A stretch of 64,000 nucleotides of DNA. Origin: an uncultured Planctomycetales bacterium (GTDB lineage Bacteria > Omnitrophota > Gorgyraeia > Zapsychrales > Fredricksoniimonadaceae). Made by a program: the position numbers and the translations under genes. This document shows positions 4,063 to 44,877 of the stretch, piece by piece (position 1 is the first letter of the stretch; each line of letters begins with the position of its first letter). The notes under the pieces are model-generated. The model made no database searches. It saw nothing but the letters and a program-made list of their open reading frames with translations, and was not told where the DNA came from. Location: positions 2,034 to 66,033 of the forward strand of contig CAZOXU010000005.1 of the NCBI GenBank assembly GCA_964583975.1, in the 5' to 3' direction.

Positions 4063-4065
4063 AAT

Positions 4066-5597: not shown

Positions 5598-5656
5598 AAT
5601 AAAGCCCCAAAATTACATATTCACAAAAAGATATGCTTTTGTTAGTATAAAATCCT

Positions 5657-28819: not shown

Positions 28820-28859
28820 AAAAGCCAGACAGCGTCAACCCTTGGAACCGCTCTTTGAT

Positions 28860-28910
28860 ATCGCAATTTGCGACATCAAACTTGAGGTCGCAAATTGAGG
28901 CCTCAAGTTT
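28860..28910. promoter_or_regulatory. Two overlapping, mutually exclusive hairpins followed by a T-run (terminator or attenuator-like element)
   Basis: cgcaatttgcgac (28863-28875) pairs with gtcgcaaattg (28888-28898). cttgagg (28881-28887) pairs with cctcaag (28901-28907) and is followed by tttt. The second arm of helix 1 lies in the loop of helix 2. Confidence 0.45.
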
Positions 28911-28914
28911 TCAA

Positions 28915-29286
28915 TTAGCGCCAAAATCTTATAAGAATATACGAACCCACAATCCCAATACTATCAATCATAACATCATAAATCGAACTTGTACGGGAAG
29001 GGACAAAACTTTGATGGTATTCATCCAAGAGGGCGTATATTACAGAAAATACGACAGAACAAAGAAAAAGCTTCTTTGGATCTAGCTTAAACGAACCTTT
29101 AAGAGCCCTGTAGAATAAAATGTTAAGCATAAAGTATTCAAAAACATGAACGCATTTTCTTAAAGCTAAATCCACCAAGCCAGCTTCCACCTCTTCTAAT
29201 CCTGAACCGATCCTTGGTTGATTAGAAAAGTAAAAAATCATTCCAGCCCAAAAAATAACAGGCCCCCAAAGTTTAAGTATTTTCAT
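28915..29286 (-). CDS. VanZ-like family membrane protein
   Basis: 123 aa with 3-4 TM helices and a VanZ-like pattern (...LDEYHQSFVPSRTSSIYDVMIDSIGI...). Confidence 0.55.
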   Translation of the reverse strand: MKILKLWGPVIFWAGMIFYFSNQPRIGSGLEEVEAGLVDLALRKCVHVFEYFMLNILFYRALKGSFKLDPKKLFLCSVVFSVIYALLDEYHQSFVPSRTSSIYDVMIDSIGIVGSYILIRFWR

Positions 29287-29963
29287 AGTTCCTTTATAAA
29301 AATGACAGGCTTACGATTACGATCAAGCCAGTTAAGAATTTTAAAAACATTATCCTCAGATAATGCTACACAACCGCTGGTAGCTTTATCAAAACTTCGC
29401 CAGATATGCAAAAAGATTGCACTTCCCTTGCCAGCTACAACAGGATTTTCATTATATTTGATAACCACCCCTGCTTTGTATAAATCATCACTTCTTTTCA
29501 TTATTTCAAAAGACTTAGCATCGCCTTTTTTCTTCAAATAACTCCATCGATTATATTGTGCTGATTGGGGATCATCAATCCAGATATCTTCAGCCTTAAG
29601 AACCCGATAATCCATCTTGGTTGAGACCTTGCGTAAGTAGCCAAAACTGGTGCCAAGATTAAAGACTCCTGCAGGAGTAAACCCATCCCCCTCACGTTTT
29701 TCTTGGGCCGAAATCACACCGCTTCTTCCAACAACAGCATCGAGAGACACGAAGACAGGTTTCCATCCATTCCATCTTCTCTCCCAGACATTGACCTTGG
29801 CTTTAAAAAGACTTCCGGGTACAACTTCAACCACCAAGGCTTGGGTAATATGCCTCGATAATGGCTTAAAAATTTCAGGAGTAGACGTTTGAGCTCGAGC
29901 ATCTTGAGAGTTTAGAAAAAGCAATACAACACAGATAAAGAATAATTTGAGGAATTGTAACAA
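29283..29963 (-). CDS. L,D-transpeptidase (YkuD domain), secreted
   Basis: 226 aa with a signal peptide and a C-terminal catalytic region GKGSAIFLHIWRSFDKATSGCVALSEDN (His ... SGC motif). Confidence 0.7.
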   Translation of the reverse strand: MLQFLKLFFICVVLLFLNSQDARAQTSTPEIFKPLSRHITQALVVEVVPGSLFKAKVNVWERRWNGWKPVFVSLDAVVGRSGVISAQEKREGDGFTPAGVFNLGTSFGYLRKVSTKMDYRVLKAEDIWIDDPQSAQYNRWSYLKKKGDAKSFEIMKRSDDLYKAGVVIKYNENPVVAGKGSAIFLHIWRSFDKATSGCVALSEDNVFKILNWLDRNRKPVIFIKEL

Positions 29964-29966
29964 AAT

Positions 29967-30329
29967 TTATACTCCGAGAATTTCTTGGACTTTTTCTACA
30001 ATTTCTTGGAGTTTGAGAGGTTTTAAAAGGTAGGATTTAATTCCATGGCGTTTAAAAACAGGCTCCATCTCTCCATAAGCGGTCAGGACTACAACGGGGA
30101 TCTTGGCAAATTCAGGATTCTTGTCTTTCTCCATAACAAAAGTGTAGCCATTCATATTAGGCATTTGGACATCCAATAAAATCAAATCTGGAACTCTTTG
30201 TTTAAGCATTTCCAAAGCTTGATCTCCATCACCCGCTGTCATCACCTCATAACCATGCTCAAGGAGTTTGCGTTTTGAGATTTCGACTATGACTTCTTCG
30301 TCATCTACCACCATGACACATTTTGCCAT
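29967..30329 (-). CDS. Stand-alone response-regulator receiver domain (CheY-like)
   Basis: 120 aa. VMVVDDEEVIVE provides the acidic pocket, DLILLDVQMPNMNGY the phospho-acceptor Asp, and there is a conserved Lys in KPLK. No output domain is present. Confidence 0.8.
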   Translation of the reverse strand: MAKCVMVVDDEEVIVEISKRKLLEHGYEVMTAGDGDQALEMLKQRVPDLILLDVQMPNMNGYTFVMEKDKNPEFAKIPVVVLTAYGEMEPVFKRHGIKSYLLKPLKLQEIVEKVQEILGV

Positions 30330-30412
30330 TCACTTAATCCCTTTCAATTGTAATAAATTAATTTTATATAATTTAACGGCTTTAGCAAGGCTTTACCAGA
30401 GATATTTAACGA

Positions 30413-33214
30413 TCAATCTCTCTGATTTCTTTGTGGGTCATCCACAAAAGGAATTTGTGGATCCAATATTTCCTCCAAAATAAAGCCCAGCGACCGAAGA
30501 CCTGCATCAATAGCTTGCTTAGAATCTTCCAAGCTATAACCTTTGATAAATTTCTCAATCTTGTTGGTCTTTAAATGGTAAAGGGCGGCATTAATAGGTA
30601 CATTTGGGTAAACTCCCTGTAAATAATAAAGATACAAAGGCATCTGGAAAGACAATAACTGGTCTCGGATAATTTCTCGACTTAAATGACCTTCAAGCAG
30701 TTCATCAAAACTCTTAGGGATTAATTCTTGTCCTCCCGTCTTATAATCCAAAACCAAAATACTACCATCCGTCATCTGGTCAACCCTATCCATACGATAT
30801 GTCAATCGCACCTGCTTATCTCCTAAAAAGGTTACATGATCAAACCTTCTTTCTAGGGCTAGGATAGTGGCCACCTCCTTATGGCAACGCAAAGCTTCAA
30901 CATCTAAAAAACGCTGCAATCTGGTTTCTAATACACTCTTAATTAAAAAGGCATCACTTCTTTGCCTACGGCCAAAGATTTCTTCAAATTTCCGGCGACT
31001 AACATTTAGAAAATATTTTCTAAACTCTTCATCCAAAATAGGTTTTTTGTTAATAAATGACTTAAAGGTATCTTCCAAAAGTTCATGCACAAAGTTTCCA
31101 ATATGCCTGGCTTCTGGCTCATCTAATAAATTATCTTGTTCCCTTAAACCCAAAACATAATTCTCATAAAATTCATAAGGGTTACGCAAATAGGTATTAA
31201 GACTAGAGGCTGAAAAACTCATAGTCTTTAAGAAATCAACCATGGCCTGCGTTTTGGGAATAATTTTTTGAGTAGAATTTAATTTGACCTGAAAACGACC
31301 TGATTCGACCGTAACCACATCGAGCTTCTGCGCCTTCTTCTCCTCTTCCCAAATCAATTCTTCAATAAAACGACTACGTTGTTTATCTGCCCGTTCCTGG
31401 TAAATCAAATGTACGTTTCGAGCAGAAGAAATCAAACGCATGAATCCATAACGTTGGATTTCTTCTTCAAGCTCAAGGCGATCCAAATTCAACTTAATCA
31501 TGATGTCTCTAGGGATTAAAGGCTCGTAGATATTGAGATTTGGCAAAATACCTTCATTCACATCCACCACAATGACATTTTCAAAACTTAAAGCACGCGT
31601 TTCAAAAAGACCCAAAATTTGCAAGCCTCGTAAAGGCGAGCCAGTAAAAGCTACCATTTGATTACTCAAAGTATCTTCTAGAATTCGAAACATTTCATGA
31701 GGTAAGAAAGACTGCTTAGCAAATTCACTGGCTGCAAGTTCTTGAGATAAGTTTTCCAGACTCAAAGCGATCCGATCATTAAAAGGATACTTTGACATAG
31801 AACCACCTTGTCTCATTAAAGACGTAAAATCACCCAATACTTGCGCTAAATCTCCAAAGCTAGCAGCCTTCTGCCATTGATAAAAAAGGTTCTGATGTAG
31901 AAATTTCAATGTTTCTTTTAAATTCTGTGGTGTTATATCAATATCTATAGCTTTAAGAGCAACCAAGCTTCGCTCAATCAATTTTTCTTCTTGAGCAAAA
32001 GCCTCAAGGTTTAGAAAAATCTGTCCGGAATATTGCGATTCAACCTGACCGGTTAAAATCTCTTCAATTGTATGGACCAATACCCTGACAACTTGAGCCC
32101 CTCCTTTTTCTAAATTCTGAACCAAAGGATGGCGCAGTACTCTTAAATAATCACGTGTATAATACAAATTTTTCTGCAGAGATTTCTGGGCCGCAAAGAT
32201 CTTTTCTAAAAGAGCATACAATGCGCTTCGTTTTAATGGATAACCCATTGAAATATTAAATTCTTTAACCTGGTCTGATAACAATGACAACAGTGGAAGA
32301 ATAAAATCGGTTTGAGGCAAAACAATGACAGTTCGCTCAGGCTGTGAAACTTTCTCTAAAATATTCTTAACCATAGCTGCTTGGGAATGAATATCAAAAG
32401 CTTTATGGATTTTTAACTTAAAATCCCCTTCAATAACCTTAGGCCCCTCTAAGATCTCTCCACCTAGCACAGACGAAATACGTTTAAGCGCGGGCCATCG
32501 GCGTTGATCACCTTGCATCATCAGCGTTGTGTTGGCATGCTTGTAACAATACTCAATAGTTTTCATCTCACTACGGTGCAAATAAAAGAAATTGCAAAAC
32601 AAAATTTCCTGCCAGCCACTTAAATCACAAGATGCAACCAATTGACTAGCTTTGGAATATTGGAAGCCTCTGGAAGTGATATTTTGTTGCTCCAACAATT
32701 GATGATACTCTCTTCTTAAAACAAACAAACTTTCAAGCAAACGACTAATATCTTTAGGAATATCAAAACCAATCTGTGCCTGAGCTTGTAAATTTTTAAG
32801 AATGTTCTGAGAAGTCAATTCTAAATCCAACTGCTCAATAAGCGCATGGATCTCCTTGGCCCATGGGAGAAAAGAACAGAAACGCTCTCTTCCTTTTAGA
32901 AGTTCGGGAGTATGTTTTAAAGCTAATTGATAAATCAGATAATAATGATCTAGTCCAGAAAGTGGTTGGGTTTCCTTCTGGCTCGCAACAATATGCGCCA
33001 TCCATTCATCGATAGTAAAAAAGGTTGGTGGGTAGAAAACTTTTTTTGACCTCGCAGCTAAAGCACGTTTTAGAAAAAGCGCAGGCCTTCGACCGCCAAA
33101 AATAACAGCCAGCTTGCGCAAATCTATCCCCTTCAAAATATAATTTTGATGGATATAGTCTGCCAAGTGATCAATAAAATCTTCTGTGAATGGGACAGTA
33201 ATTATTTTACTCAT
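30413..33214 (-). CDS. AddB-like subunit of a helicase-nuclease (PD-(D/E)XK nuclease, degenerate helicase fold)
   Basis: 933 aa. The C-terminal ILVLDYKTGG is the RecB-family nuclease motif. There is no Walker A at the N-terminus and no Cys cluster, so no Fe-S domain. It overlaps the addA-like gene by 8 nt. Confidence 0.65.
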   Translation of the reverse strand: MSKIITVPFTEDFIDHLADYIHQNYILKGIDLRKLAVIFGGRRPALFLKRALAARSKKVFYPPTFFTIDEWMAHIVASQKETQPLSGLDHYYLIYQLALKHTPELLKGRERFCSFLPWAKEIHALIEQLDLELTSQNILKNLQAQAQIGFDIPKDISRLLESLFVLRREYHQLLEQQNITSRGFQYSKASQLVASCDLSGWQEILFCNFFYLHRSEMKTIEYCYKHANTTLMMQGDQRRWPALKRISSVLGGEILEGPKVIEGDFKLKIHKAFDIHSQAAMVKNILEKVSQPERTVIVLPQTDFILPLLSLLSDQVKEFNISMGYPLKRSALYALLEKIFAAQKSLQKNLYYTRDYLRVLRHPLVQNLEKGGAQVVRVLVHTIEEILTGQVESQYSGQIFLNLEAFAQEEKLIERSLVALKAIDIDITPQNLKETLKFLHQNLFYQWQKAASFGDLAQVLGDFTSLMRQGGSMSKYPFNDRIALSLENLSQELAASEFAKQSFLPHEMFRILEDTLSNQMVAFTGSPLRGLQILGLFETRALSFENVIVVDVNEGILPNLNIYEPLIPRDIMIKLNLDRLELEEEIQRYGFMRLISSARNVHLIYQERADKQRSRFIEELIWEEEKKAQKLDVVTVESGRFQVKLNSTQKIIPKTQAMVDFLKTMSFSASSLNTYLRNPYEFYENYVLGLREQDNLLDEPEARHIGNFVHELLEDTFKSFINKKPILDEEFRKYFLNVSRRKFEEIFGRRQRSDAFLIKSVLETRLQRFLDVEALRCHKEVATILALERRFDHVTFLGDKQVRLTYRMDRVDQMTDGSILVLDYKTGGQELIPKSFDELLEGHLSREIIRDQLLSFQMPLYLYYLQGVYPNVPINAALYHLKTNKIEKFIKGYSLEDSKQAIDAGLRSLGFILEEILDPQIPFVDDPQRNQRD

Positions 33215-36200
33215 GTAAATAGACTAAAAATCCTTCCACCTTTAATTTAGGATAAAGCTGACCAATTAATTGTTGATATTCCTTCATTTGGCTTTGATGC
33301 ATCTGCTCTTCTATTCGACTGGTTTTAAAATCTACAATCCAAATCTTATCTTTAAAAACCATAACTCTATCTAAGCGTCGGGTGTCACCAAAGCGATTGA
33401 CAATTTCTTGTTCACAAAGCACCCCAACATCCGAGCTTATTTCAAATAATGGACACACATCAGACCTTACCAAAAATGTTGATAATTGCTTCGTATAAAA
33501 ACCCTCATCCAAACGGCCAAACTTTAACCTTGCTTCATCTACAACCTTTGCGACTACAGCCTCTATCTTCCCTTCAATACGAACAATCTTAGATAAGCAG
33601 TAGTGTAAGATCACACCCTGCTGGCGAATCTTAGCCTGCTGTGAACTTTCTTGAGCTAGCTCTTCTGTCAACTCAGCTACCCATCTTCGATCAACAGCCG
33701 TAGCTAGAACTGGCAAAGTCACTGCTGATTCAGGTTCTTTCTTATGAGCTATTTTTTGACCTAAAGAAAAGGAGGCTTCCTGAAACAAAAAGCCTGCCGG
33801 ATTGATACTATTAGCACTCCTTTGAGGAACCATGACATAAAGCTCACTAATGGCTCTGGTGAGGGCCACATAGACATTATTCAATTCAATAGCTAACGAA
33901 GCTTTATATTCATCTTCATAACGCTTTTTTAGAATTTCACTAAATCGGCCGTAGGTTTTCTTCAACCGAAGCATTCTTAAGCCCTCATCATCGACATCCA
34001 ACACATAGGCGAGCGCCTTATCAGAACTCTTAGATGTTTGTACGGTCATTTCTAAAAATGGAATAATCACAACTTCAAATTCCAATCCCTTGGCTTTATG
34101 AAGGGTCATGACCTTGATAGCTTCCTGAGAAGCAACGCTCACAAACCTTTCTTCCGTAGGTAAATTATCAAAATAATCAATAAAGCCTTCTAAGTCGCAA
34201 CTCGATTCTTCACGGCGCTTAATTAGTTCTAAAAAATGCATCAAGAAACCTTGAGCATCATGAAACTCATGCAAACGAAATTGGGCATAGATGCTGACAA
34301 CCAATTCATAAATAGGATAGATGCCCACCTGATTAAAGAAATCTTCCAGGCAATCTTTCCACACTTGCGAATAGCGTTCTTGAAATTGTTTATAAAGATA
34401 CGCCTGTGCGTGGGTCCGTCTCTTAGCGCGACATTCAAACAGAAAATCTCTTAATTGCTCTTGAGATAAACCACTGGCTTTAGGGAAGATCTCGCCTAAT
34501 AAAAATCGAGCGAAGTTTACATTATCAACGGGCGCGTTTAAAAAACGTAAGAACTCAACGATCTCATTGATCAAAGGATGGTTCTTAATATCACAACTTC
34601 TTTCAGACTGCGCATGGATCCCCTGACTTAAAAGCCAACCAGTCACCTCCTCTACCTGTCCATTGGTGCGTGTTAAAACAGCAATATCCTTTAAAGCATA
34701 ACGCTTTTGAACATCAGCAATGGTTTTAAGCAATTGCTGTCTAACAGACTCCTGACGTTCTTGTCGCCTTTTTCCTTCTATGAGATGGACCTGTACAAAA
34801 CCTCCTGACATGTCTTCTCTAATTTCTTGCTTCGAATGTTCAAAGGTCTTTTGGATCTCTTGAATATTTTCCTGATTAAAATAAACCTCTTCACCAGATT
34901 TGTCTTTTTCCGAGTAATGCTCCTGGCGTCTTACAAAGAAATCTTCTATATTTTTAGGACTAAACAAATAATTATTAAATTCCACAACAGCCTTACGACT
35001 ACGCCAATTCTTCAATAAAAAATCCCTGTTTAAAGGAGCGCTAGGGAACTGCTGCGGTAATTCATCAAATAAACGACTTTCGCCACCACGAAAAGAATAA
35101 ATTGCTTGTTTCTTATCGCCAACCACAAACAAAGATCCTTGAATAGAAAGAGCTTCTTGAATCATTAAAAATAGATTCTTCCACTGTGAGTCACTGGTAT
35201 CTTGAAATTCATCAATTAAATAATGGTGAAAACGGACAGCCAAGCGATAGTAAAGCTCACTGACACTAATTCCTTCCTCGATCAAGGCTGAAGCTTTCTT
35301 ATTGAGTTCTTGTAAGAATAAAATGTCATCTTGGGCACAAAGCCTGGCAAAGACCTCATTGACCTTTTGAAAAATCATGACATAAGGATTAAAAACTCCA
35401 TAGCTTTCTGCCAAACACAAATTTTTAATACATTCCCTGGCCTTAGCCCATTGCTGTTCTAAATCCTTAGAAATTTCTACCCCTTTATTGGCAGGAAACT
35501 GCTCGTAGGAGAAATACCGGCTCACATCATCTAAGTCAAACGATACAGGATGAGCTTCAAGGAATTTAGCGAGACCCTCTGTAAACTTCTTATTCATCGA
35601 AGGATCAGATAATGCTTGTATATTTTTGGCTATATCCAGAAATTCTTTTTTAGCTAGGTATAAATCCCTGCTATCAGCAGGAAAGATAATAAAAGACTTT
35701 TGGTAAGTGTTATATTCTCCAAAAAGCATGGTGAGGGTATCCATAAGGTCTTCCTTAGGAAACCATCCGCTTCTATTCTCCAAAAACAAATACTGATGTA
35801 CAAAATCGTCTAATAAGGCGCGGACCTTGGGATCATCCTGACTTAAAGCAATCCATTGGTCCAAGCTCTGTTGTAAATAATCCTGGCTGTTACGTTGAAT
35901 CTTAAAACGGGCTGATAGATTAATTTTAAACGCACAACCGGCCAGTAAAGTATTGATAAAACTATCAATGGTTTTGATGGAAAAGAAATGATAGTGGCGG
36001 ATCAAAGAATCCATAAGGCTAAAACTCAAGGTAGAAGCCTCGTGAGCTGAAATACCCAATGGATCAAGAAAAGCCTGCTTTTCTTGTGAATTAAGTCGAT
36101 TGAGTGCAATCTTCTTTAAAAACTGCAGCACCCTGGTTTTCATTTCAAAAGAAGCTTTATTAGTGAAGGTAATGGCAAGAATATTCTTAAAGCTTTGTGG

Positions 36201-36320
36201 ATTGTCCTTGGCTGTTTTAAGCAATAACTGGACATACCTCAAGGCCAGCGCATAGGTTTTGCCGCTACCAGCAGAAGCTTCGGTAATGCAAATCTCGGGA
36301 AAGTCAAACAATTGGGACAT
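33207..36320 (-). CDS. AddA/RecB-like UvrD-family helicase with C-terminal PD-(D/E)XK nuclease
   Basis: 1037 aa. Helicase motifs are I EASAGSGKT, II LIDEFQDTS, III VVGDKKQAIYSFRGG, and a late motif MTLHKAKGLEFEVVIIP. The C-terminal nuclease motif is IWIVDFKTSR. Confidence 0.8.
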   Translation of the reverse strand: MSQLFDFPEICITEASAGSGKTYALALRYVQLLLKTAKDNPQSFKNILAITFTNKASFEMKTRVLQFLKKIALNRLNSQEKQAFLDPLGISAHEASTLSFSLMDSLIRHYHFFSIKTIDSFINTLLAGCAFKINLSARFKIQRNSQDYLQQSLDQWIALSQDDPKVRALLDDFVHQYLFLENRSGWFPKEDLMDTLTMLFGEYNTYQKSFIIFPADSRDLYLAKKEFLDIAKNIQALSDPSMNKKFTEGLAKFLEAHPVSFDLDDVSRYFSYEQFPANKGVEISKDLEQQWAKARECIKNLCLAESYGVFNPYVMIFQKVNEVFARLCAQDDILFLQELNKKASALIEEGISVSELYYRLAVRFHHYLIDEFQDTSDSQWKNLFLMIQEALSIQGSLFVVGDKKQAIYSFRGGESRLFDELPQQFPSAPLNRDFLLKNWRSRKAVVEFNNYLFSPKNIEDFFVRRQEHYSEKDKSGEEVYFNQENIQEIQKTFEHSKQEIREDMSGGFVQVHLIEGKRRQERQESVRQQLLKTIADVQKRYALKDIAVLTRTNGQVEEVTGWLLSQGIHAQSERSCDIKNHPLINEIVEFLRFLNAPVDNVNFARFLLGEIFPKASGLSQEQLRDFLFECRAKRRTHAQAYLYKQFQERYSQVWKDCLEDFFNQVGIYPIYELVVSIYAQFRLHEFHDAQGFLMHFLELIKRREESSCDLEGFIDYFDNLPTEERFVSVASQEAIKVMTLHKAKGLEFEVVIIPFLEMTVQTSKSSDKALAYVLDVDDEGLRMLRLKKTYGRFSEILKKRYEDEYKASLAIELNNVYVALTRAISELYVMVPQRSANSINPAGFLFQEASFSLGQKIAHKKEPESAVTLPVLATAVDRRWVAELTEELAQESSQQAKIRQQGVILHYCLSKIVRIEGKIEAVVAKVVDEARLKFGRLDEGFYTKQLSTFLVRSDVCPLFEISSDVGVLCEQEIVNRFGDTRRLDRVMVFKDKIWIVDFKTSRIEEQMHQSQMKEYQQLIGQLYPKLKVEGFLVYLHE

Positions 36321-36326
36321 GAAATG

Positions 36327-37070
36327 CTATTTGTGAGCTTTGAAAATAGGATCTTCTAGAACTTCACGGATGATGGCAATTGAGGCATCCAAGGTGCTTT
36401 GCCCTGGCTTAACTCCCCAATCGGTAACATCTTTACCATATACTTCTAAATCTTCTAATAATTTGCTGCGTTGCTTTTCCGTGATGGCTAAAAGCTTACC
36501 TTTATCATTTGCATTATCTTGACTTAAAAGAACCTTGGTCATCAACGCTGAGGCCTTAATAACAGACTTATCTATTTCCTTACGTTGAAGCTCCAATTGA
36601 CGCAAGGAGTTACTAAACTCCTTCTCTTCAGCTACTTTAGGTTTTGCCTTAGTTTTATATTCCAGCCAATTCTGCCACAGATCTTTAGCTTTATCATTTA
36701 AGACTATTTCCTTATCACAAGCAATGATCACTAAATCAGACACTTTCCGCATCAATTGATTGGAAGATGTTAAATATTTATTCAGATAACCTTTAATAAT
36801 TCTCAGATTAGCATTATCTAAAACATAGTATTCGATATTACCTCGAATCATCTTTAATTCATCTTTGGGGAACTTTTTCTTAGGGGGATTTTGACTCCAT
36901 CGATTCTCAATGGTTCGAAAATAACTGAGAGCCGAAATATAACTGCGGGCAAATTCATACTTATTACCATCAGGATTGTTCTTTTTAAATTCATTCTCTG
37001 CAGCCAAAACATTGGAAGCACCAATGAATATTAAAAATCCAATAAGAACATTCAAAATGATTTTATTCAT
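36327..37070 (-). CDS. Small secreted protein of unknown function, abutting the giant gene
   Basis: The track ORF starts at 37106. The internal start MNKIILNVLIGFLIFIGASNVLA at 37070 is a classic signal peptide. The rest is Lys/Glu-rich and alpha-helical. The gene sits between the giant gene's stop at 37107 and the addA-like start at 36320. Confidence 0.5.
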   Translation of the reverse strand: MNKIILNVLIGFLIFIGASNVLAAENEFKKNNPDGNKYEFARSYISALSYFRTIENRWSQNPPKKKFPKDELKMIRGNIEYYVLDNANLRIIKGYLNKYLTSSNQLMRKVSDLVIIACDKEIVLNDKAKDLWQNWLEYKTKAKPKVAEEKEFSNSLRQLELQRKEIDKSVIKASALMTKVLLSQDNANDKGKLLAITEKQRSKLLEDLEVYGKDVTDWGVKPGQSTLDASIAIIREVLEDPIFKAHK

Positions 37071-37106
37071 GTGTGCTATTGTAACGTCCACAAAGGTCTT
37101 GGGCAA

Positions 37107-40100
37107 TTAAATCTTTGCTAATGCTTGCGCTTCTTTACTGATTCCAAGTAATGGAAATGGGCTTAGGATGGGTGCGATATCGATAATGACAGGTGAAAAA
37201 CCTTGAAACTCTCCTTGAAGCAATTCATCGAGTTGGGCTGGATCAAAATCAACCTTAATCGTCTTGCCAGTACGATTAATATTAATTTGATTTAAATCAA
37301 TACCACCTAGATCTTGTGATTTATTAGATCGGTTAAGCATTGCTTGATCATTTCCTTCATATAGTTGAGATTCTTCGCCATAACGAATACCCCTTAAAGC
37401 ATCTTCATACATTTGCTTACGTCTTAACCATTCTAAAGCCCCACTTGCTCGATTATGAGCTTCAACTAAATCCATTTCGGGCGTTGATTTACTTAAGAAC
37501 ATAATATCAATCAACTCTTTAGCCTTGATTACCTCATTAGAATTAAATGATTGCAAAAACCAAACAAGCGCCTTGACCAACATTTCTTCCCTAATATTGT
37601 GAGCCACCCTACGTTCATTTAAATCATCTATTGTCAAACTTTTCGAATTACCAATAAGATCCCGTGCAAACATTATGGTATCTGCCATTTGAGCTATCTC
37701 CCTAGCAGTTGCTTTGGAAGGCAATAACGACTTAGCTACTTCAAAATCCGAGACATCATTAGAAGACATCGCCCTGTCATCCCCCATTGCACTATTAAGC
37801 TTATTAAATACTTTTTGCGCTTTAATATAGGCAATATTAATAGCTGTATAAATATCATTGTTAGATCTCCTATATCCATAAATCAAATAAATAATTTCTA
37901 TGGCCTTTAAAACTTCATCATTAATCTTTGAATCCAAAAACCTAAGAAGAGCTTTTACTAAATAAGTTTCATTTGTATCATAAACTTCTAATTTAGATTC
38001 TATGTCTTTCACGGATATAATTTGATCTTTAGAGTCTACCCATTCTCGGGCAAGTCTTAAGGCATTTCCAAACCTGTAAATATTCTGTGGATTATTTTCT
38101 AGAGGTAAAAAATCTTTAGCATAATCATAAAAAGCACCTAATGCATCATTCAAAGAGGGAATCTGGCCCAATTTCTTAATACGCAATGATTTAGTATCCC
38201 AAGGAACTATTTTCGAAGGCTCCCCCTCAACAGAAGAATCAATAGCTCTAGAAGCTTTCTGGTACATTGACCTTAATAATGCACTGCGCTCATCTTTCTT
38301 TGTTTCTAAATAAATGCCATAAATTAAAGATATGGCTCGTGATTTTTCATCATCATTTCCAAATCTTAAAAACCAATCCAAAGCAATGATTAACAAATTA
38401 CGATCAAACTTTGAAGCTTTAATATCTGAATCTATTTCTTCAATTGAAAAGTTTTTTTGTTCTCTAATATATCTGTGCGCCAGATTTAAAGCGTCTCCTA
38501 ATTGAGTTAATGGTATCTCTTTATACTTGTTATCTTGCTCTTGGATCTTTTGAGCTAACTCATAACCATTGAAAACTGTTGGAGATGTTGAATCTGATTT
38601 AGAATTCATAGCTTGATCTGCAGGCACGGTGGGCTCGCTGTCCCATATACGAATTGTTTCATCAACCTTACTCTGATCAATCCATCGATCCCACTTGCAG
38701 CTCATAAGCGCTTGGCGAATGGCCCCATCTCGATCTAATGGTTTTAATCTTAAAACATATTCTTGAATAATCAAACGAGCTTGTTCTCGTACTCGATTAA
38801 TTCTTTCATTTTGAGGATTCATGGAAGCAATCAAATAGGGTACCGATCTTTCTAACTCCACAACTGACATTGTTTTTAAACTCAACATGCGAACATGGTC
38901 ATTTTGCTCAACACCATTAAATCCATGATTATTTCTTTCATCCATATAGGCATGTTGTTCCAACAATTTCCAAAATTCTCCTTTATCAAGCAAGTCTTGT
39001 CGCAATGATAATATTAACAATGCCCCTTGTCGGGCTTTCGAATAATCTCTTCCTGTCGTAGATAGTATTTCTAACAAAGCTTGAACATTCAAATCCCTAT
39101 TCACTAAAGCTCTTGCCTTGTCTCTAATATTATTATTAGCATATTCATCAGGAAATTCTTGTGCCAGCTCTTTAGCTTCCGATGATAAAGCACCCTCTTT
39201 TATAATATCCTTAGCAACTCCTTTGTCTATACCTGCACCTGACTTCCCATCCCACAAACCTATAAATCTTCGAATCCTATCTTTATCAATTTTAAAATCA
39301 TCTACTAGCGCGCTACCAAACGCACTTCTAAAACGTCCCTGCCTATCTAATTCTCTAATTTCTGCAATATATTGAATGGCTATATCTATAACTACATTTC
39401 TCACCTCTACTGACAACTCACTCTTCCAATAAAATGATTCAACCAAATAAGGAATTGCTCTACGTAAATCTAAAGCGGCCATGGTTCTTAAACTTTGAAC
39501 CCTTACAAAATTATTTCGTTCAATGCCTTTAATCCTCATTGAATTATATTGATTTTCATACGCATGTTGCACCAAGTAAGGCCAAAGATCATCCTTTTTG
39601 ATTAAATCTTTACGTAATGTAAAAATAAACAAAACTGCTTCTCGAGCCGGAGCATATTTTCGATCTGTCGTTGCTAAAACCTCCAACAATACCTTTAACT
39701 CTAGCGTTCCTTGCACAATCTCCCGCGCCTTACTATAAATTTGCTCTCCTTTCCAATGACTTAGAAACTCATCGGCAAATGCTTGCGCTTCTAGTGACAA
39801 GACTGGCTTGGAATCTGGCTGGGAAGTCATAGCATGATCTGAAACATCTGGCATTGTTGCAGAAATATTAGCCCATCGATTTACTAATTCTAAGACCCTA
39901 TCTTTATCTATCCATTGATCATATTTATAGGACAATCTTAATTGTTTCAATAATTCACCTTCTGAATCTAATCTTATTATCCAATTAAGCTTACCAGATA
40001 TAATTCTCAATATTCTTGCACGAACATCTACTATTCTTTCATTTCTAGGGTTTAATGAATGAATTAAATACGGAATTGACCTTTTTAAATCCAGCTCAGC

Positions 40101-42170
40101 CATTGTTCTTATACTTTGTAATCGAACATAATTATTCTGTTCAATACCTGGAATTCTTTTATCATTTGTATCATCACGATAGGCATGTTCTTCAAGCAAT
40201 GGCCACAAGATTTTATTCGGAATTAAATTCTTTCGAATAGATAAAATGATTAAAACCGCCTGTCTAGCCCTAGAACATCTTGCTGTTCTTGTTGCTAAAA
40301 CTTCCAACAAAAGATCTTTCTCATAATACCTTTGAGATATATCTTGTGCCTTTTTAATAACATCTTGGACTAAAAAGCTTACTGGAAACTCCTCTACAAA
40401 TTTTCTAGCTCCTTCAGATAAATAATCATCTTCGTTTAACTGGGAAGTCATGGCGGAATCTTGTGATAGTTCTTGAGCAATTTGGAGAATTCGAGGTAAA
40501 TTTCGTTCTAATTTAAGTTGAATTTCTAAGACTTTCTCGGCCATTTCTTGAGTAAAACCACCATCAATTATAAATTTAGCCGCATCCCAAAGATTCACTA
40601 ATCCAGCATTATTATCTTCTAATTTAGGTCTATTTGGCATTCGTTGAATAATTTTATGCGCCCAATCTAATAAATTTCTTAATTTAGAATAATTACTAAA
40701 CTGATCTAAAACATTTCTTAATGTTTCTGCACCTTGATCTATATTAACTTTTTTATCTGTAATTTCTGAAATCTGAAGAAAAGCCAATTCAAAGCTTACA
40801 ATTGGTTCAATAATTAAATGATTAATCCCTGTAGAATTTAAATTAGCTTTTGATTGTAAATAGCCAAACAAGCCCTTGTGATAGACGTCTTTTATTTCTT
40901 CTATTAATTTCACACCCTCTTTCTGTAAATTATCTCTCTTTGCTTTAGAAATCATTGCTACATCTGTTGCAAAATTATTTACTAATTTCACCTGCAAAGA
41001 CATCATCGCCCCATCTGCTTTAATATCAGCCTGTCTTCCATTTCTTTCTACAGGAATCTTCATCAACGTCAGTCCACCAGAGAAATACTTCCGTGGTCCT
41101 GCTGATGCTGCACCAGATCCAACGTCAGTTGGATCTGGGTCCTTAATGTAATTAAACACACCCTTTTTATAGGCTTGCAGATAGCGCTCGTATATCTGTT
41201 GTTTTATCGCAGGGTCGTTAAGATTAACACCTGCCACCTTGTTCTTATTGGTATACACTGCATCTAAAAGACCATTTTGAATGGTTTCCTTGTACCATTT
41301 AGCTAAGATCAATGCATCGTAGATTTGACGAAGTGGGGCAAAGTTCTTTCCCTGATTGACTTCTTTGGTGATTTCGGGAATGACAATCTCACGGATGATT
41401 TGGCTTCCGATTTGATTGGATTCGCGTACGGGCGGGGTTTCCTCGCCCTTATTAGGGCTGGGTGACCCAGCCCGTACATTATTCTTTGACATCGCCAAAT
41501 AATCCTCATCCAACATGACCTTCAAGGTTGATTTGGTCACGTAGGCCGCTGGTGGAACATTTCCGCCAGAGGCGGATCGACCTGCGGCCGACTCATACAC
41601 CTGCGCTTGATCTGGTAGAATCCATACCTTGTTAAAAGTATTGACTGGAACATCCGTGGTGCCAAATTGCTCTTGGGCTTTTTTGTAGACTCTACTCCAA
41701 AACTCCTTGCCTAAATCCTTCTCTGGGTAAATCAGCGAGGCAGTCAATTGCTTAAGGATATAGTCTTGGGCTAATAGATCACGACCTAGCTCGGTTTCAC
41801 CTAAAGACTGGGTAGTCATGCGGTCTTTTTCATAAGGTGAAAGATTGACCCATAAATCACCTTCTGGGATGGTTAGGCCAGCTAAGAAGTACTTCACTAA
41901 TCTTTCTGCCTCTTCTTGATTAGGGCTGCTAGCTGCCCCTACCGAGCCAGTGTCTACGATAAATTGAAATTCCAGAGGTTTCTGGGGATTAACAATAATA
42001 CCTTTTAAAGCTAGGGGTGTAAAAGCTGCTGATGGCCCTACCATGACTCCTGGCTCGGGCAGCTGTAGTAGGGGCACGGCATGCCGTGCTCCTACATCCG
42101 CATAGGAATACTGTAAGTTGCTGCAAATAAATGACATGCAGACTATAGAAGAAATCAAACGTTTGAACAT
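37107..42170 (-). CDS. Giant secreted modular protein (1687 aa): signal peptide, conserved N-terminal module, 3 x ~200-aa HEAT-like tandem repeats, further helical modules, conserved C-terminal ~75-aa module
   Basis: The signal peptide is MFKRLISSIVCMSFICSNLQYSYA. The N-terminal 365 aa and the last 75 aa are clearly homologous to the partial ORF at 60607..64000. Three internal repeats share ATTxRxYxxARxAxLxIxxLRxxLxxxxxWxxLxxHAYxxxxNxxxIxGxExNxxVRxQSxRTMAxLDLxRxIPYL. Confidence 0.85.
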   Translation of the reverse strand: MFKRLISSIVCMSFICSNLQYSYADVGARHAVPLLQLPEPGVMVGPSAAFTPLALKGIIVNPQKPLEFQFIVDTGSVGAASSPNQEEAERLVKYFLAGLTIPEGDLWVNLSPYEKDRMTTQSLGETELGRDLLAQDYILKQLTASLIYPEKDLGKEFWSRVYKKAQEQFGTTDVPVNTFNKVWILPDQAQVYESAAGRSASGGNVPPAAYVTKSTLKVMLDEDYLAMSKNNVRAGSPSPNKGEETPPVRESNQIGSQIIREIVIPEITKEVNQGKNFAPLRQIYDALILAKWYKETIQNGLLDAVYTNKNKVAGVNLNDPAIKQQIYERYLQAYKKGVFNYIKDPDPTDVGSGAASAGPRKYFSGGLTLMKIPVERNGRQADIKADGAMMSLQVKLVNNFATDVAMISKAKRDNLQKEGVKLIEEIKDVYHKGLFGYLQSKANLNSTGINHLIIEPIVSFELAFLQISEITDKKVNIDQGAETLRNVLDQFSNYSKLRNLLDWAHKIIQRMPNRPKLEDNNAGLVNLWDAAKFIIDGGFTQEMAEKVLEIQLKLERNLPRILQIAQELSQDSAMTSQLNEDDYLSEGARKFVEEFPVSFLVQDVIKKAQDISQRYYEKDLLLEVLATRTARCSRARQAVLIILSIRKNLIPNKILWPLLEEHAYRDDTNDKRIPGIEQNNYVRLQSIRTMAELDLKRSIPYLIHSLNPRNERIVDVRARILRIISGKLNWIIRLDSEGELLKQLRLSYKYDQWIDKDRVLELVNRWANISATMPDVSDHAMTSQPDSKPVLSLEAQAFADEFLSHWKGEQIYSKAREIVQGTLELKVLLEVLATTDRKYAPAREAVLFIFTLRKDLIKKDDLWPYLVQHAYENQYNSMRIKGIERNNFVRVQSLRTMAALDLRRAIPYLVESFYWKSELSVEVRNVVIDIAIQYIAEIRELDRQGRFRSAFGSALVDDFKIDKDRIRRFIGLWDGKSGAGIDKGVAKDIIKEGALSSEAKELAQEFPDEYANNNIRDKARALVNRDLNVQALLEILSTTGRDYSKARQGALLILSLRQDLLDKGEFWKLLEQHAYMDERNNHGFNGVEQNDHVRMLSLKTMSVVELERSVPYLIASMNPQNERINRVREQARLIIQEYVLRLKPLDRDGAIRQALMSCKWDRWIDQSKVDETIRIWDSEPTVPADQAMNSKSDSTSPTVFNGYELAQKIQEQDNKYKEIPLTQLGDALNLAHRYIREQKNFSIEEIDSDIKASKFDRNLLIIALDWFLRFGNDDEKSRAISLIYGIYLETKKDERSALLRSMYQKASRAIDSSVEGEPSKIVPWDTKSLRIKKLGQIPSLNDALGAFYDYAKDFLPLENNPQNIYRFGNALRLAREWVDSKDQIISVKDIESKLEVYDTNETYLVKALLRFLDSKINDEVLKAIEIIYLIYGYRRSNNDIYTAINIAYIKAQKVFNKLNSAMGDDRAMSSNDVSDFEVAKSLLPSKATAREIAQMADTIMFARDLIGNSKSLTIDDLNERRVAHNIREEMLVKALVWFLQSFNSNEVIKAKELIDIMFLSKSTPEMDLVEAHNRASGALEWLRRKQMYEDALRGIRYGEESQLYEGNDQAMLNRSNKSQDLGGIDLNQININRTGKTIKVDFDPAQLDELLQGEFQGFSPVIIDIAPILSPFPLLGISKEAQALAKI
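38600..40450 (-). repeat. Three divergent tandem coding repeats (~600 nt / ~200 aa each) inside the giant gene
   Basis: Protein-level alignment of three consecutive segments beginning ...FVEEFPVSFLVQDVIKKAQ, ...FADEFLSHWKGEQIYSKAR and ...LAQEFPDEYANNNIRDKAR; each continues with LLEVLATxxRxYxxAR...HAY...NER...W(I/D)xKDR. DNA-level identity is low, so the duplication is old. Coordinates are approximate. Confidence 0.6.
41424..41478. repeat. GC-rich nested palindromic mini-element embedded in-frame in the giant ORF
   Basis: gtacgggcggggtttcctcgcccttattagggctgggtgacccagcccgtac. The outer arms gtacgggc/gcccgtac are perfect. The inner hairpin gggctgggtgacccagccc is nearly identical to an intergenic copy at 59262-59284. 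It encodes the low-complexity linker AGSPSPNKGEETPPVRE. Confidence 0.55.
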
Positions 42171-42181
42171 TTAGAAAAGTA

Positions 42182-42205
42182 TGCCATATATTTATATATA
42201 TGGCA
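42182..42205. promoter_or_regulatory. Perfect 9-bp inverted repeat in the ppa / giant-gene intergenic region (ppa terminator and/or operator in the giant-gene leader)
   Basis: tgccatata (42182-42190) and tatatggca (42197-42205) flank a 6-nt tttata spacer, 12-35 nt upstream of the giant gene's ATG at 42170. It is followed by a T-run when read on the minus strand. Confidence 0.45.
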
Positions 42206-42239
42206 AATGGACTTCACTTAAGATTTACACTGGCAGGAT

Positions 42240-43041: not shown

Positions 43042-44877
43042 ATGATTAAAAACACATCCATTCATACATTTCACGTTCCAGTCATGGGAACAGCCTTCAC
43101 CATTGATAGCCCTGTTAAGGTGGCTAAATATGGGATCCATTCTGTCATATCCCTGGTGGACGATCATTTAATTGAAGAAATGCGTAAGTTTTATTGCACC
43201 AAATACGTCCAAGACTATACACCCATTACTAAATACGATGAAGATTACCGAGCCAGACGTATTACAGCCTATCTTGATCTCCTTGACTGGATTGTCCAGA
43301 AAGAATTTAATGCTGTCAAAAACTCCCAGTTTGTGCCAGGAAGCGAAATCACCAAATATTTCGAACTACTTCCTGATGATTCTGTACTAAAAGCAGCCTA
43401 TCACCACATGCTCGAATGCCAAGATGAAAAAGTCAAAGAAGGCCTCCAAAAGAACCTGCGCGAAGCGATGAAACCTGGCGATATTAACGTAAACATTATG
43501 ACCAAGTTAGATCGTGATAATTATGACTCTAAGGGCAATCTCTTGGCTCCTGAATTTTCTGATGGGCTCTCAGCCTTACGTGGTTATGCCCAAAGCCGCT
43601 TAAAATCCTGTATCATCTTCTCAGCTGGTTTTAACCGTCGTCTTTATGGTTATATTGAAAACTTCAAAGATTTCTATGCAGATGCCACGGGTGAGATCAA
43701 AAAGAAAATCATTTTAAAGGTCAGCGATTTTCGCTCCACCCTGATTCAAGGCAAATTCTTGGCCAAAAAAGGCCTGTGGGTTTCTGAGTATCGCATTGAA
43801 TCTGGTCTTAATTGTGGCGGACACGCCTTTGCAACCGATGGTTATCTCATGGGCCCTATCATGGAAGAATTTAAAACCAAACGCCAAACGCTTATTGATG
43901 ATCTGCACAAAATTTGTAATGAAGCCTTGAAAATTAAAAACCGTTTAACAACCATCCAGCCTCATAGCGTTAGAATCACCGCTCAAGGTGGTATTGGTAA
44001 TTACAAAGAAGATTCATTTCTTCGTAAACATTACAATCTTGATGGTACAGGTTGGGGCACTCCTTTCTTGCTGTGCCCAGAAGTCACCAACGTTGATCCG
44101 GTGACCATGGAAAAACTATCAAAAGCAACCGAGAAAGATGTATATTTGAGCCCCGTTTCTCCTCTTGGCGTGCCTTTTAATAATTTGCGTGATTCTTTAA
44201 GTGATCTCGAGCGTGATATGCGCGTCATGCGCGGCCGTCCAGGCAGTGCTTGCCCTAAAAGCTATTTAGTTTCAAATACCGAATTTACTCAGCAACCTAT
44301 TTGTACAGCCAGCCGTCAATATCAAAAATTGAAATTAGAACAGTTAGCTTCTTTAAATCTCGAGCAACAAGAATACAAAAAACAATTTGAGAAGATTATT
44401 GTGAAATCTTGCATTTGTAATGATCTTGGTGAATCTGTATTAATGAATAATAAGGTCCCTACTCCTATCAATCGCTTTCCGGCTGTTTGCCCAGGGCCAA
44501 ATATTGCCTACTTTTCTAAAATTGTATCGCTCAAAGAAATGGCTGACCATATCTATGGACGTATTAATATCCTAAATAACACCTATAGACCGCATATGTT
44601 CATCAAAGAATTACGTATGTATGTGGATTATCTGCGTAGTGACGTCGTCAAATCACTTGACTCATTAAGCGATCAGAAAACTAAATATTTCGGAGAGTTT
44701 AGAAATAATCTGCTAGAGGGAATTGAATACTACCGCAAACTATTTCCACAAATGACTGATGAGAGCGTAGAATTTCGTAGTAAGATGATTAATGAACTCG
44801 AAGAGTGCAGAACAAATCTTTTAAATCTTTGCCAAGAACACGCCACAGCCTTCTCACCTGCTCTAGCGCAAGTCTAA
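43042..44877 (+). CDS. Unassigned 611-aa protein; central region resembles an FMN-type TIM barrel (nitronate monooxygenase / FabK / IMPDH-like) with extra N- and C-terminal domains
   Basis: ESGLNCGGHAFATDGY parallels the QGxEAGGH catalytic His motif of NMO/FabK, and ITAQGGIGNYKED parallels the (A/S)GGI FMN phosphate-binding motif. The remaining ~300 aa are unassigned. A TATACT box lies 6 nt before the ATG and there is no SD. Confidence 0.55.
   Translation: MIKNTSIHTFHVPVMGTAFTIDSPVKVAKYGIHSVISLVDDHLIEEMRKFYCTKYVQDYTPITKYDEDYRARRITAYLDLLDWIVQKEFNAVKNSQFVPGSEITKYFELLPDDSVLKAAYHHMLECQDEKVKEGLQKNLREAMKPGDINVNIMTKLDRDNYDSKGNLLAPEFSDGLSALRGYAQSRLKSCIIFSAGFNRRLYGYIENFKDFYADATGEIKKKIILKVSDFRSTLIQGKFLAKKGLWVSEYRIESGLNCGGHAFATDGYLMGPIMEEFKTKRQTLIDDLHKICNEALKIKNRLTTIQPHSVRITAQGGIGNYKEDSFLRKHYNLDGTGWGTPFLLCPEVTNVDPVTMEKLSKATEKDVYLSPVSPLGVPFNNLRDSLSDLERDMRVMRGRPGSACPKSYLVSNTEFTQQPICTASRQYQKLKLEQLASLNLEQQEYKKQFEKIIVKSCICNDLGESVLMNNKVPTPINRFPAVCPGPNIAYFSKIVSLKEMADHIYGRINILNNTYRPHMFIKELRMYVDYLRSDVVKSLDSLSDQKTKYFGEFRNNLLEGIEYYRKLFPQMTDESVEFRSKMINELEECRTNLLNLCQEHATAFSPALAQV

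Follow-up and report, generated by a model that had tools for sequence, protein, structure and literature searches.

The seven-gene array at positions 28915-42170 of the window (the whole 64-kb stretch of DNA that was analysed) most probably consists of an ordinary addAB pair, positioned in a conserved string of housekeeping genes, and lineage-specific insertions. It is likely to be a composite and not a functional system. At the core of the 13-kb array would be AddAB, the enzyme of two subunits with which Candidatus Omnitrophota resects the ends of double-strand breaks. Its single SF1A motor would reside in AddA, together with one RecB-type nuclease; AddB would contribute the other RecB-type nuclease and a scaffold without a motor, presumably an inactivated UvrD-like helicase fold in the N-terminal region, that would scan for Chi. 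Two insertions would have interrupted the string: a member of an exported modular family entered between PPase and p247, and VanZ entered together with an L,D-transpeptidase between REC and yggS. On this reading, AddAB has no functional tie to the large exported protein.

Gene order and packing of the array

The seven ORFs at 28915-42170 are all on the minus strand. Their coordinates were re-checked, and the domain calls of the array genes were upheld by Pfam and NCBIfam, in agreement with the genes, annotations, and gaps given in an earlier note on this DNA. When the longest ORF is used for each gene, the gaps from the large gene to VanZ are 0, 6, -8, 83, 3, and -4 nt. The first of these, between the large gene and p247, is 36 nt if p247 begins at the ATG at 37070. 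The earlier note had described the array as tightly packed and co-directional. Of the 56 ORFs in the 64-kb window that are 100 aa or longer, 51 share the minus strand; neighbouring same-strand ORFs are separated by a median of 6 nt, and the gap does not exceed 20 nt in 32 of 49 cases. In its tightness and co-orientation, the array matches the genome background and is not unusual. The GC skew is below zero throughout the window. The tight spacing would result from genome-wide compaction, and the addAB housekeeping string is probably co-oriented with replication.

The upstream boundary of the array is a terminator-like hairpin (42182..42205, minus strand), with an AT-rich 10-bp stem and a U-rich tail, located between the stop codon of PPase and the ATG of the large gene. 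The predicted RNA fold of 42171-42239 has an energy of -14.3 kcal/mol (z = -2.66), and the hairpin is likely the PPase terminator, with an overlapping promoter-like site. The downstream boundary is a structured spacer (28820..28914, minus strand; -30.6 kcal/mol, z = -2.47) containing two strong hairpins 3′ of VanZ, ahead of yggS. No hairpin or terminator-like signal was found between the large gene and addA, and structured hairpins are present at the two array ends only. Because hairpins flank the array and none is internal, the seven genes may be read as one transcript, and the co-transcription of the large gene with addAB suggested previously is possible.

AddA and AddB

AddA (33207..36320, minus strand) is an SF1A UvrD-like helicase with a C-terminal RecB-family nuclease, as identified by matches in Pfam (UvrD-helicase, UvrD_C, and a weak PDDEXK_1), NCBIfam, and the PDB. 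Every helicase and nuclease motif that was checked is present: Walker A GSGKT at approximately residues 17-22, DEFQD at 370, motif III at 401, motif VI at 818, and the nuclease motif VDFKT at 996. The NCBIfam model of the RecB-like helicase PRK13909 matches the full length of the protein, and the top PDB sequence match is AddA of Bacillus subtilis (3u44_A). The genes addA and addB overlap by 8 nt.

AddB (30413..33214, minus strand) carries a C-terminal PD-(D/E)XK (RecB-type) nuclease, detected by Pfam PDDEXK_1 (E = 1.4e-26), with the residues RMDRVD...LDYKTG and Q857...Y861. The best NCBIfam AddB match is TIGR02786 addB_alphas (E = 1e-28, residues 322-827). More than 580 full-length orthologs of AddB were found in Omnitrophota. 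In the alignment of 20 of them, D809, R810, D823, Y824, K825, and Q857...Y861 are invariant.

Both proteins score below all NCBIfam trusted cut-offs: AddA reaches 320 bits against 650 for PRK13909 and 168 against 861 for TIGR02784, and AddB 99.9 against 486.5 for TIGR02786, all three being models built for other phyla. No sequence-detectable relative of AddB was found in the PDB, including chain B of 3U44, even with a profile. The low scores and the lack of a PDB sequence relative of AddB count against the composite reading.

The motif comparison agrees with the previous description of AddB as lacking both the Walker A motif and the C-terminal Fe-S cysteine cluster. The Walker A pattern GxxxxGK[ST] has no match in AddB; the N-terminal region contains FGGRRPALFLKR instead, and the conserved FGGRRPxLFLKR occupies the place of Walker A. 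The C-terminal CxxCxxxxxC and the four Fe-S cysteines are absent, the only cysteines of the protein being 113, 196, 207, 223, and 777. Walker A and the Fe-S cysteines are likewise missing in the 20 aligned Omnitrophota orthologs, among which no cysteine is invariant. In direct comparison, AddB of Sinorhizobium also has neither Walker A nor the cysteine cluster, and that of Bacteroides has no Walker A. Residues 22-846 of AddB align in tblastn with AddB of Bacteroides (B. finegoldii), covering 88% of the length. The missing motifs had been taken to suggest a reduced or divergent AddAB, but they are the normal state in the 20 aligned orthologs and match the alphaproteobacterial type of AddB. Judged by its motifs, AddB is of a known type and is not degraded. 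It appears to belong, as alphaproteobacterial AddB does, to the type without Walker A and without the Fe-S staple.

Conserved gene string, insertions, and alternative readings

The synteny set comprised 80 related Candidatus Omnitrophota genomes at the species level, and 83 loci were used for tblastn searches (E < 1e-6). The conserved backbone in the 80 genomes is PPase-[REC]-p247-addA-addB-REC-yggS-proC-PNP-ileS, and addAB occupies one housekeeping position throughout. The full backbone PPase-p247-AddA-AddB-REC-YggS-ProC-PNP-IleRS is present in loci L001, L002, L006, L007, L010-L017, L022, and L066. In all related loci that span both genes, addA and addB are adjacent and their order is unchanged. 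The genes neighbouring addAB in the string are unrelated housekeeping genes and are equally tightly packed.

The small secreted protein p247 (36327..37070, minus strand) corresponds to the 259-aa ORF of the earlier note. The longest ORF begins at a TTG and spans 36327-37106; the database copy (P0241, 247 aa) and all homologs of approximately 247 aa begin at the ATG at 37070. Its N-terminal helix is a signal or an anchor and is followed by a long four-helix bundle and, at the C-terminus, a small alpha/beta unit; the family is known from Omnitrophota alone. The single-domain CheY-like receiver REC (29967..30329, minus strand; Pfam Response_reg, E = 7e-25, full length) has an intact phospho-acceptor pocket formed of D9, D10, D53, T83, and K103, as read from the translation. 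REC is a conserved downstream neighbour of addB in a sub-clade, positioned 3′ of AddB in L001, L002, L004-L007, L010-L017, L019, L022, L032, L034, L041, L062, and L066.

It is possible, but unlikely, that p247 and the receiver or receivers are accessory or regulatory partners of AddAB in one Omnitrophota clade, and that REC-p247-addA-addB-REC is a true joint-function operon, in which end resection might, for example, be coupled to incoming DNA or to a signal from the envelope or periplasm. In this respect, p247 is positioned directly upstream of addA in all 21 retrieved loci that contain it, and in L001, L002, and L005 the two genes overlap or are 5-10 nt apart. The linkage to addAB survives in L084, where p247 has an identity of only 38% and REC lies directly upstream with a 1-nt overlap, and REC follows addB across the sub-clade. 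However, PPase adjoins addA without p247 in L019 and L032, both p247 and REC are missing from most Omnitrophota loci with AddB identity below approximately 50%, and the remotest p247 homolog (L085) adjoins iPGM rather than addA. Furthermore, p247 has the fold of a generic helical bundle, its export would separate it topologically from a cytoplasmic nuclease, and the plainly unrelated housekeeping genes of the string are packed as tightly.

The linkage of the exported p247 and a CheY-like receiver to addAB across one sub-clade is an observation worth keeping. The persistence of this linkage down to 38% p247 identity, with stop and start codons that overlap or nearly do so, counts against the composite reading, as it may reflect function rather than inheritance.

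The large gene, the L,D-transpeptidase, and VanZ are lineage-specific insertions, because the large gene is nearly absent from its position in the related loci and the other two from these loci altogether. The YkuD-type L,D-transpeptidase (29283..29963, minus strand; Pfam YkuD, E = 1.4e-9) carries a signal peptide and an H...SGC catalytic motif, and no homolog was detected in the 83 loci by tblastn (E < 1e-6). The VanZ-family membrane protein (28915..29286, minus strand; Pfam VanZ, NCBIfam vanZ_1) occurs among the related loci in L004 alone, where it is also 3′ of REC. The p247 gene and REC, which the earlier note had also listed beside addAB, are conserved neighbours of the pair in the sub-clade.

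The large gene (37107..42170, minus strand) encodes a 1,687-aa exported modular protein. It is organized into a Sec-type signal peptide, a conserved N-domain of approximately 385 aa, helical-repeat modules, and a conserved C-tail of approximately 70-80 aa with the sequence GGIDLNQI...SPFPLLGI...LAKI. The modules are bounded by D-x-A-M motifs at residues 386, 403, 571, 778, 1185, 1465, and 1608, and no TM-like segment was found beyond the signal peptide and C-tail. The protein has no match in Pfam, NCBIfam, or PADLOC. The similarity to more than 3,800 word-index homologs is confined to its N-terminal ~24%, and an exhaustive HMMER search detected the N-domain in 7,863 representatives of 50%-identity clusters. 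The N-domain is 55-78% identical to those of hundreds of members, and GG[IV]DL is present within the last 110 aa of 90 of 120 family members. With its signal peptide, N-terminal ~385-aa N-domain, and GGIDLNQI...LLGI C-tail, the protein is, by predicted architecture, a member of a very large family of exported modular Omnitrophota proteins without a Pfam-A or NCBIfam match. The thousands of members have unrelated cargo and unrelated gene contexts; the cargo includes HEAT, TPR, ankyrin, NUDIX, PPDK_N, REC, hexokinase, and methyltransferases. The combination of signal peptide, N-domain, variable modules bounded by D-x-A-M, and C-tail is worth keeping as one family architecture.

It is very unlikely that AddAB works with p247 and the large exported protein as a single co-transcribed functional unit, with an envelope or secreted apparatus mechanistically linked to a reduced recombination nuclease. 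The gap of 0-36 nt and the lack of a hairpin or terminator-like signal before p247 and addA are consistent with such a unit. The arrangement recurs in L005, where a family member is positioned at the identical PPase|p247 (p259) junction with a 6-nt gap, and family genes are located less than 10 kb from addAB in 9 of the 80 loci. However, the L005 gene has an N-domain identity of just 46% to that of the window and carries different cargo, and among the 19 distinct loci with p247 outside the window, L005 alone has a large gene between PPase and p247. At this junction, the gene is missing from all three other members of the closest-relative group (L001/L020, L004, and L006), in which AddB is 69-71% identical; the linkage of the large gene to addAB thus fails the synteny test that the earlier note had set for its refutation. 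Eight further loci have N-domain genes at other positions, with approximately 10 copies in 1.29 Mb, and their density near addAB is no higher than that of the 64-kb window (2 copies). The supposed reduction of AddB is usual in this lineage and corresponds to a known AddB type, and the variety of cargo and contexts in the family also argues against a dedicated unit. Given L005, the PPase|p247 junction is perhaps favoured rather than random, which counts against the composite reading.

It is extremely improbable that addAB belongs to a defence island or a mobile element, such as a Gabija-like UvrD/nuclease system, instead of being a housekeeping pair. AddA matches many PADLOC models of GajB (UvrD helicase), with E-values down to 1e-36, and variable genes are inserted around addAB. 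However, the GajB matches span the shared UvrD core alone, no PADLOC model matches AddB, p247, or the large protein, the position of addAB is the same in the 80 species-level genomes, and no integrase, transposase, or tRNA landmarks were found.

Comparison with known systems

Archaeovorins (bioRxiv 10.1101/2023.11.21.568195, 10.64898/2026.06.07.730766) are very long multi-enzyme or repeat-scaffold proteins of the phylum Omnitrophota, to which the large-protein family also belongs. The two are alike in cargo repertoire and in their signal peptide or signal-peptide-plus-TM architecture. In contrast to Archaeovorins, the protein of the window has just 1,687 aa, no enzyme cargo, and no TM helix past the signal peptide. 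Text searches of these two papers for motifs and linkers gave no account of the ~385-aa N-domain, the D-x-A-M motifs, or the C-tail, and West-Roberts et al. give the cleavage points as unknown.

The earlier note had called for a comparison of the helicase-nuclease motifs with AddAB, AdnAB, and RecBCD, of which AddAB alone fits: two adjacent co-oriented subunit genes are present, AddA has a motor and a nuclease, and AddB has a C-terminal nuclease. AdnAB of the mycobacterial type, in which both subunits have Walker A/B and a nuclease, does not fit, as the B subunit of the window lacks Walker A; AdnB from the PDB is only a weak match of AddA. The three-subunit RecBCD, with the SF1B motor RecD and the nuclease-less RecC, does not fit either, as the partner subunit of the window has an intact nuclease, and there is no RecD-like gene within the array.

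The alphaproteobacterial-type AddAB (TIGR02786 AddB and TIGR02784 AddA; for example, in Sinorhizobium meliloti and Rhizobium etli) is a two-subunit helicase-nuclease, as is the AddAB of the window. Its AddB shares with that of the window a C-terminal RecB-type nuclease (…DR.D…(I/L)DYKTG), the lack of Walker A and of the four-cysteine Fe-S staple, and the N-terminal hF.P/G..RR....L in place of the P-loop. The two differ in gene order, which is addB-addA in Sinorhizobium and addA-addB in the window, and in length, with approximately 930 aa for the AddB of the window and 1,024 positions in the TIGR02786 model. The matches to the alphaproteobacterial models reach 100 and 168 bits, compared with trusted cut-offs of 486 and 861, and the identity of the AddB proteins is just ~25%, in the C-terminal third.

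The Bacteroides-type AddAB (B. fragilis BF2192/BF2191) has the same order of addA followed by addB as the window, and its AddB, which is approximately 950 aa long and ~200 aa shorter than that of B. subtilis, likewise lacks Walker A (PMC2887965). The B. fragilis AddAB is biochemically active, as a processive single-motor helicase-nuclease (PMC2887965). The identity of Bacteroides AddB to that of the window is ~22%, and Bacteroides AddB retains the Fe-S cysteines C674, C946, C949, and C955 (PMC2887965), whereas the AddB of the window and the 20 orthologs have none. The Fe-S cluster is found in many, not all, AddB proteins (PMC3321194, PMC2887965).

In AddAB of B. subtilis (PDB 3U44/3U4Q), AddB has an N-terminal Walker A that stabilizes the Chi complex and a 4Fe-4S iron staple held by C801, C1121, C1124, and C1130 (PMC3321194), and both are absent from the AddB of the window. 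The AddA of B. subtilis is the closest solved relative of the window AddA by sequence, and labour appears to be divided alike in the two enzymes, with one motor and two RecB-type nucleases.

Gene content and transcription signals of the array

The seven minus-strand genes between positions 28915 and 42170 encode, in the direction of transcription, a 1,687-aa large protein (37107-42170), p247 (36327-37070), AddA (33207-36320), AddB (30413-33214), a receiver protein (REC, 29967-30329), an L,D-transpeptidase (29283-29963), and VanZ (28915-29286). The seven ORFs were recovered exactly where the earlier note had placed them, with gaps of 0, 6, -8, 83, 3, and -4 nt. Matches in Pfam and NCBIfam bear out five of its gene calls: VanZ, a YkuD L,D-transpeptidase, a single-domain receiver, an AddB-like protein with a C-terminal PD-(D/E)XK domain, and an AddA-like protein with a UvrD-type helicase and a weak C-terminal PD-(D/E)XK match. 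Neither the 259-aa nor the 1,687-aa protein has a match in Pfam or NCBIfam. The 259-aa ORF opens with TTG, but a length of about 247 aa and a start at the ATG at 37070 are found in the database copy (P0241) and in each of the 115 homologs. Because p247 starts at this ATG, the first gap is 36 nt, not 0. The homologs with names, whether of AddB, p247, or the large protein, are almost exclusively named Candidatus Omnitrophica or Omnitrophota, and some MAGs are deposited under "uncultured Planctomycetales".

By the standards of the window, the packing of the array is ordinary. The 64-kb window has 56 ORFs that reach 100 aa or more, 51 of them on the minus strand; the median same-strand gap is 6 nt (20 nt or less in 32 of 49), and the GC skew is negative throughout. 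Therefore, the co-orientation and tightness of the array represent genome background.

A scan for promoter and terminator consensus sequences returned no more sites than shuffled sequence did. In RNA folding, only two spacers stand out. The spacer after PPase, the gene upstream of the large protein, forms a hairpin with a U-rich tail (z = -2.66), and that after VanZ forms two hairpins (-30.6 kcal/mol, z = -2.47). The spacers between the large gene and p247 and between addB and REC show no structure on folding. The pattern fits one transcription unit spanning the seven genes, without proving one.

A perfect AT-rich palindrome, TGCCATATAT-ATAA-ATATATGGCA (42178-42206, minus strand), is located directly upstream of the ATG of the large gene. 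It is overlapped by a promoter-like -35/-10 pair, the -10 element of which ends 7 nt before the ATG. The arrangement suggests an overlap of terminator and operator, possibly with a leaderless start. No obvious Shine-Dalgarno sequence was found at the large gene, p247, or addA, the genes that were read closely.

Synteny around addAB

Twenty AddB orthologs were aligned and used to scan the GTDB species genomes, which yielded 80 loci, in which all proteins of the window were placed by tblastn. AddA adjoins AddB in constant order in every locus covering both. Where AddB is at least about 50% identical, the recurring order is PPase-[REC]-p247-AddA-AddB-REC-YggS-ProC-PNP/UDP phosphorylase-IleRS, with which separate gene calls agree, and the array in the window is flanked by the same housekeeping genes. 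The earlier note had raised a possible linkage of the large protein to addAB. In the Omnitrophota loci L001/L020, L004, and L006, whose AddB proteins are 69-71% identical to that of the window, the junction of PPase and p247 is without a large gene. Only in L005 does a member of the large-protein family occupy this junction, and it is 1,338 aa long with different cargo and 46% identity in the N-domain, the conserved N-terminal region. Elsewhere, family members are positioned after REC (L004, L034, L041), after AddB (L054, L070, L078), or upstream (L038, L083). The family is not enriched near addAB, since about ten copies are present in 1.29 Mb of addAB-centred sequence versus two in the 64-kb window. 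Among the related loci, tblastn detected no homolog of the L,D-transpeptidase, and VanZ in L004 only. A search for target-site duplications or a common junction sequence around the large-gene insertion returned nothing convincing.

Judged by the refuting condition of the earlier note, absence of this linkage from any related genome, the large protein and addAB are merely juxtaposed, in a way specific to the lineage. The array consists of a conserved string of housekeeping genes, including a standard Omnitrophota AddAB whose AddB is devoid of Fe-S cluster and Walker A, and of lineage-specific insertions. Both the synteny and the standard type of AddB leave a functional coupling of the large secreted protein to a reduced AddAB unsupported. 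The result is a clean negative, in which genome compaction and lineage-specific insertion produce the appearance of an operon.

In L004 (13592-22450), the closest related genome, a family member of 2,684 aa is inserted between REC and yggS, with its start overlapped over 4 nt by VanZ. VanZ of the window is at the same REC/yggS junction, whereas the family member of the window is 8 kb away, upstream of p247. The difference could reflect relocation or repeated insertion. On the opposite strand of the window, a 611-aa ORF without a Pfam match (43042-44877, plus strand) is conserved in the same PPase-adjoining position, with 613 aa in L001 and 618 aa in L004.

The p247 family was found with an HMM in 21 loci, each time directly upstream of addA, and the order REC-p249-AddA-AddB is retained in L084, where the p247 homolog is 38% identical. 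The receiver has an intact phospho-acceptor pocket and comes after addB throughout the sub-clade. Both the constant position of p247 and its persistence at such divergence speak for REC-p247-AddAB as a true functional unit. However, several loci speak against a required partnership: addA adjoins PPase without p247 in L019 and L032, more distant Omnitrophota have no p247 beside addAB, and the most divergent homolog, in L085, is beside iPGM. We consider a true functional unit improbable, and inherited synteny in a compact genome is the likelier account. AddAB may have a clade-specific accessory in REC-p247, and the conserved unit REC-p247-addAB-REC is a candidate means of regulating break repair in a clade-specific manner in these host-dependent nanobacteria.

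An additional single-domain receiver is encoded directly 5' of p247 in most p247-bearing genomes, including L002 (5572-5949), L084 (7627-8001, overlapping the p247 gene by 1 nt), L007, L010-L013, L015, L017, L022, L034, and L066. In some p247-bearing genomes, addB is followed by two receivers. The receiver upstream of p247 is missing from the window and from its closest relatives.

A modular family of exported proteins

The N-terminal approximately 385 residues of the large protein are 55-78% identical to those of thousands of proteins. Matches to this N-domain form 7,863 clusters at 50% identity, 6,105 of them with E <= 1e-30. In the best 150 matches, which are 447-5,709 aa long, the domain lies at the N-terminus or no more than about 120 residues from it. 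Common to the family are a Sec-type signal peptide and a C-tail of about 70 residues, GGIDLNQI...SPF.LLGI, often ending in LAKV; GG[IV]DL is present within the last 110 residues of 90 of 120 members. The C-terminal parts are highly variable and carry, among others, hexokinase, phosphofructokinase, glucose-6-phosphate isomerase, NUDIX, methyltransferases, receivers, PEP-utilising domains, and HEAT, ankyrin, and TPR repeats. The protein of the window contains helical-repeat modules only, without enzyme cargo, and has no transmembrane-like segment outside the signal peptide and C-tail. Its internal repeats are visible by eye, but were not reported by a BLASTP self-comparison. Pfam-A and NCBIfam contain no match to the family, nor does the PDB contain a fold match.

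A second family member extends on the minus strand from 60607 to beyond 64000 and is cut by the window edge. Residues 250-366 of the N-domain map to 63990-63655 (56% identity) and the C-tail to 60801-60616. It contains six D-x-A-M motifs and has no Pfam match.

The motif D-x-A-M marks the module boundaries of the large protein (residues 386, 403, 571, 778, 1185, 1465, and 1608), with seven copies observed and 0.19 expected from composition. In 120 family members it is present 406 times, compared to 17 expected and 9-14 for permuted patterns; AddB orthologs of the same lineage have only three copies in 111,550 aa. The motif is encoded with all four Ala and both Asp codons; selection therefore acts on the peptide, and selection at the DNA level was rejected.

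The signal peptide and N-domain may form a fixed export or anchoring head, with the C-tail fixed at the other end. The modules in between, which across the family include cytoplasmic-type enzymes, would be freely exchangeable. D-x-A-M, which would mark every module junction, is a candidate for the processing or cleavage site, or the scar of module capture, that work on the Omnitrophota mega-proteins gives as unknown. The conserved 5' and 3' ends of the genes might also provide the homology arms of a cassette exchange, and family members at differing places around the same backbone would thereby be explained. We consider this reading less likely than not.

Omnitrophota mega-proteins that have this same repertoire of cargo, and a signal-peptide or transmembrane topology, are the subject of two preprints (bioRxiv 10.1101/2023.11.21.568195 and 10.64898/2026.06.07.730766). 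Their text, searched for "motif" and "linker", contains no description of the shared head domain, junction motif, or tail, and one of them states that the cleavage points are unknown. The large protein is a candidate small, tractable member of a huge Omnitrophota-only family, for which no earlier description was found. Judged by sequence, the putatively modular exported family is the most interesting lead of the analysis. Such by-products could outweigh the main result: the D-x-A-M family provides concrete, testable module boundaries for Omnitrophota mega-proteins, and both it and the REC-p247-addAB linkage merit separate study.

AddB without Walker A and Fe-S cluster

AddA contains Walker A, DEFQD, motifs III and VI, and the VDFKT nuclease motif, and among solved structures B. 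subtilis AddA is nearest to it in sequence. For AddB, more than 580 full-length orthologs were found, about 930 aa long. Among protein families, AddB matches TIGR02786 best (alphaproteobacterial AddB; E = 1e-28), with a score well under the trusted cut-off, and neither single-sequence nor profile searches found a usable relative in the PDB. All 20 aligned orthologs have the nuclease residues D809, R810, D823, Y824, K825, and Q857...Y861. None of their cysteines is invariant, and at the N-terminus a conserved FGGRRPxLFLKR occupies the position where a P-loop would be. A defence-system reading of AddAB was rejected; PADLOC yields generic UvrD matches only.

The absence of Walker A and Fe-S cluster was evaluated by motif comparison with AddB of Bacteroides finegoldii and Sinorhizobium meliloti, fetched from PLSDB. 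In the record of S. meliloti Ak57 (L087, labelled pSymB), addB (3086-6266) is split into two overlapping frames, of 341 aa and 762 aa, and the gene table omits it. These features suggest that the gene is frameshifted or a pseudogene, or that the sequence contains an error. The record, a "plasmid" of 3.7 Mb, resembles a chromosome.

The AddB of B. finegoldii, like that of the window, is without Walker A. In contrast to the window protein, it retains C674, C946, C949, and C955, in exact agreement with the report on the active enzyme of B. fragilis (PMC2887965). In the S. meliloti AddB, as in that of the window, both Walker A and the cysteine cluster are missing. The Fe-S cluster is carried by "many", not all, AddB proteins, and the Walker A of AddB stabilises the Chi complex and is not for DNA unwinding (PMC3321194, PMC2887965). 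The absence of both elements noted earlier is confirmed, whereas the reduced or divergent AddAB that it was taken to suggest is not supported, given the Sinorhizobium protein, which is without both, and the Bacteroides protein, which is without Walker A. The comparison and the published "many" indicate that the AddB of the window is, as far as its motifs tell, a normal representative of a known type and not a decayed one. The 20 aligned orthologs document this type as standard in a candidate phylum, and AddB without the iron staple is widespread outside Alphaproteobacteria.
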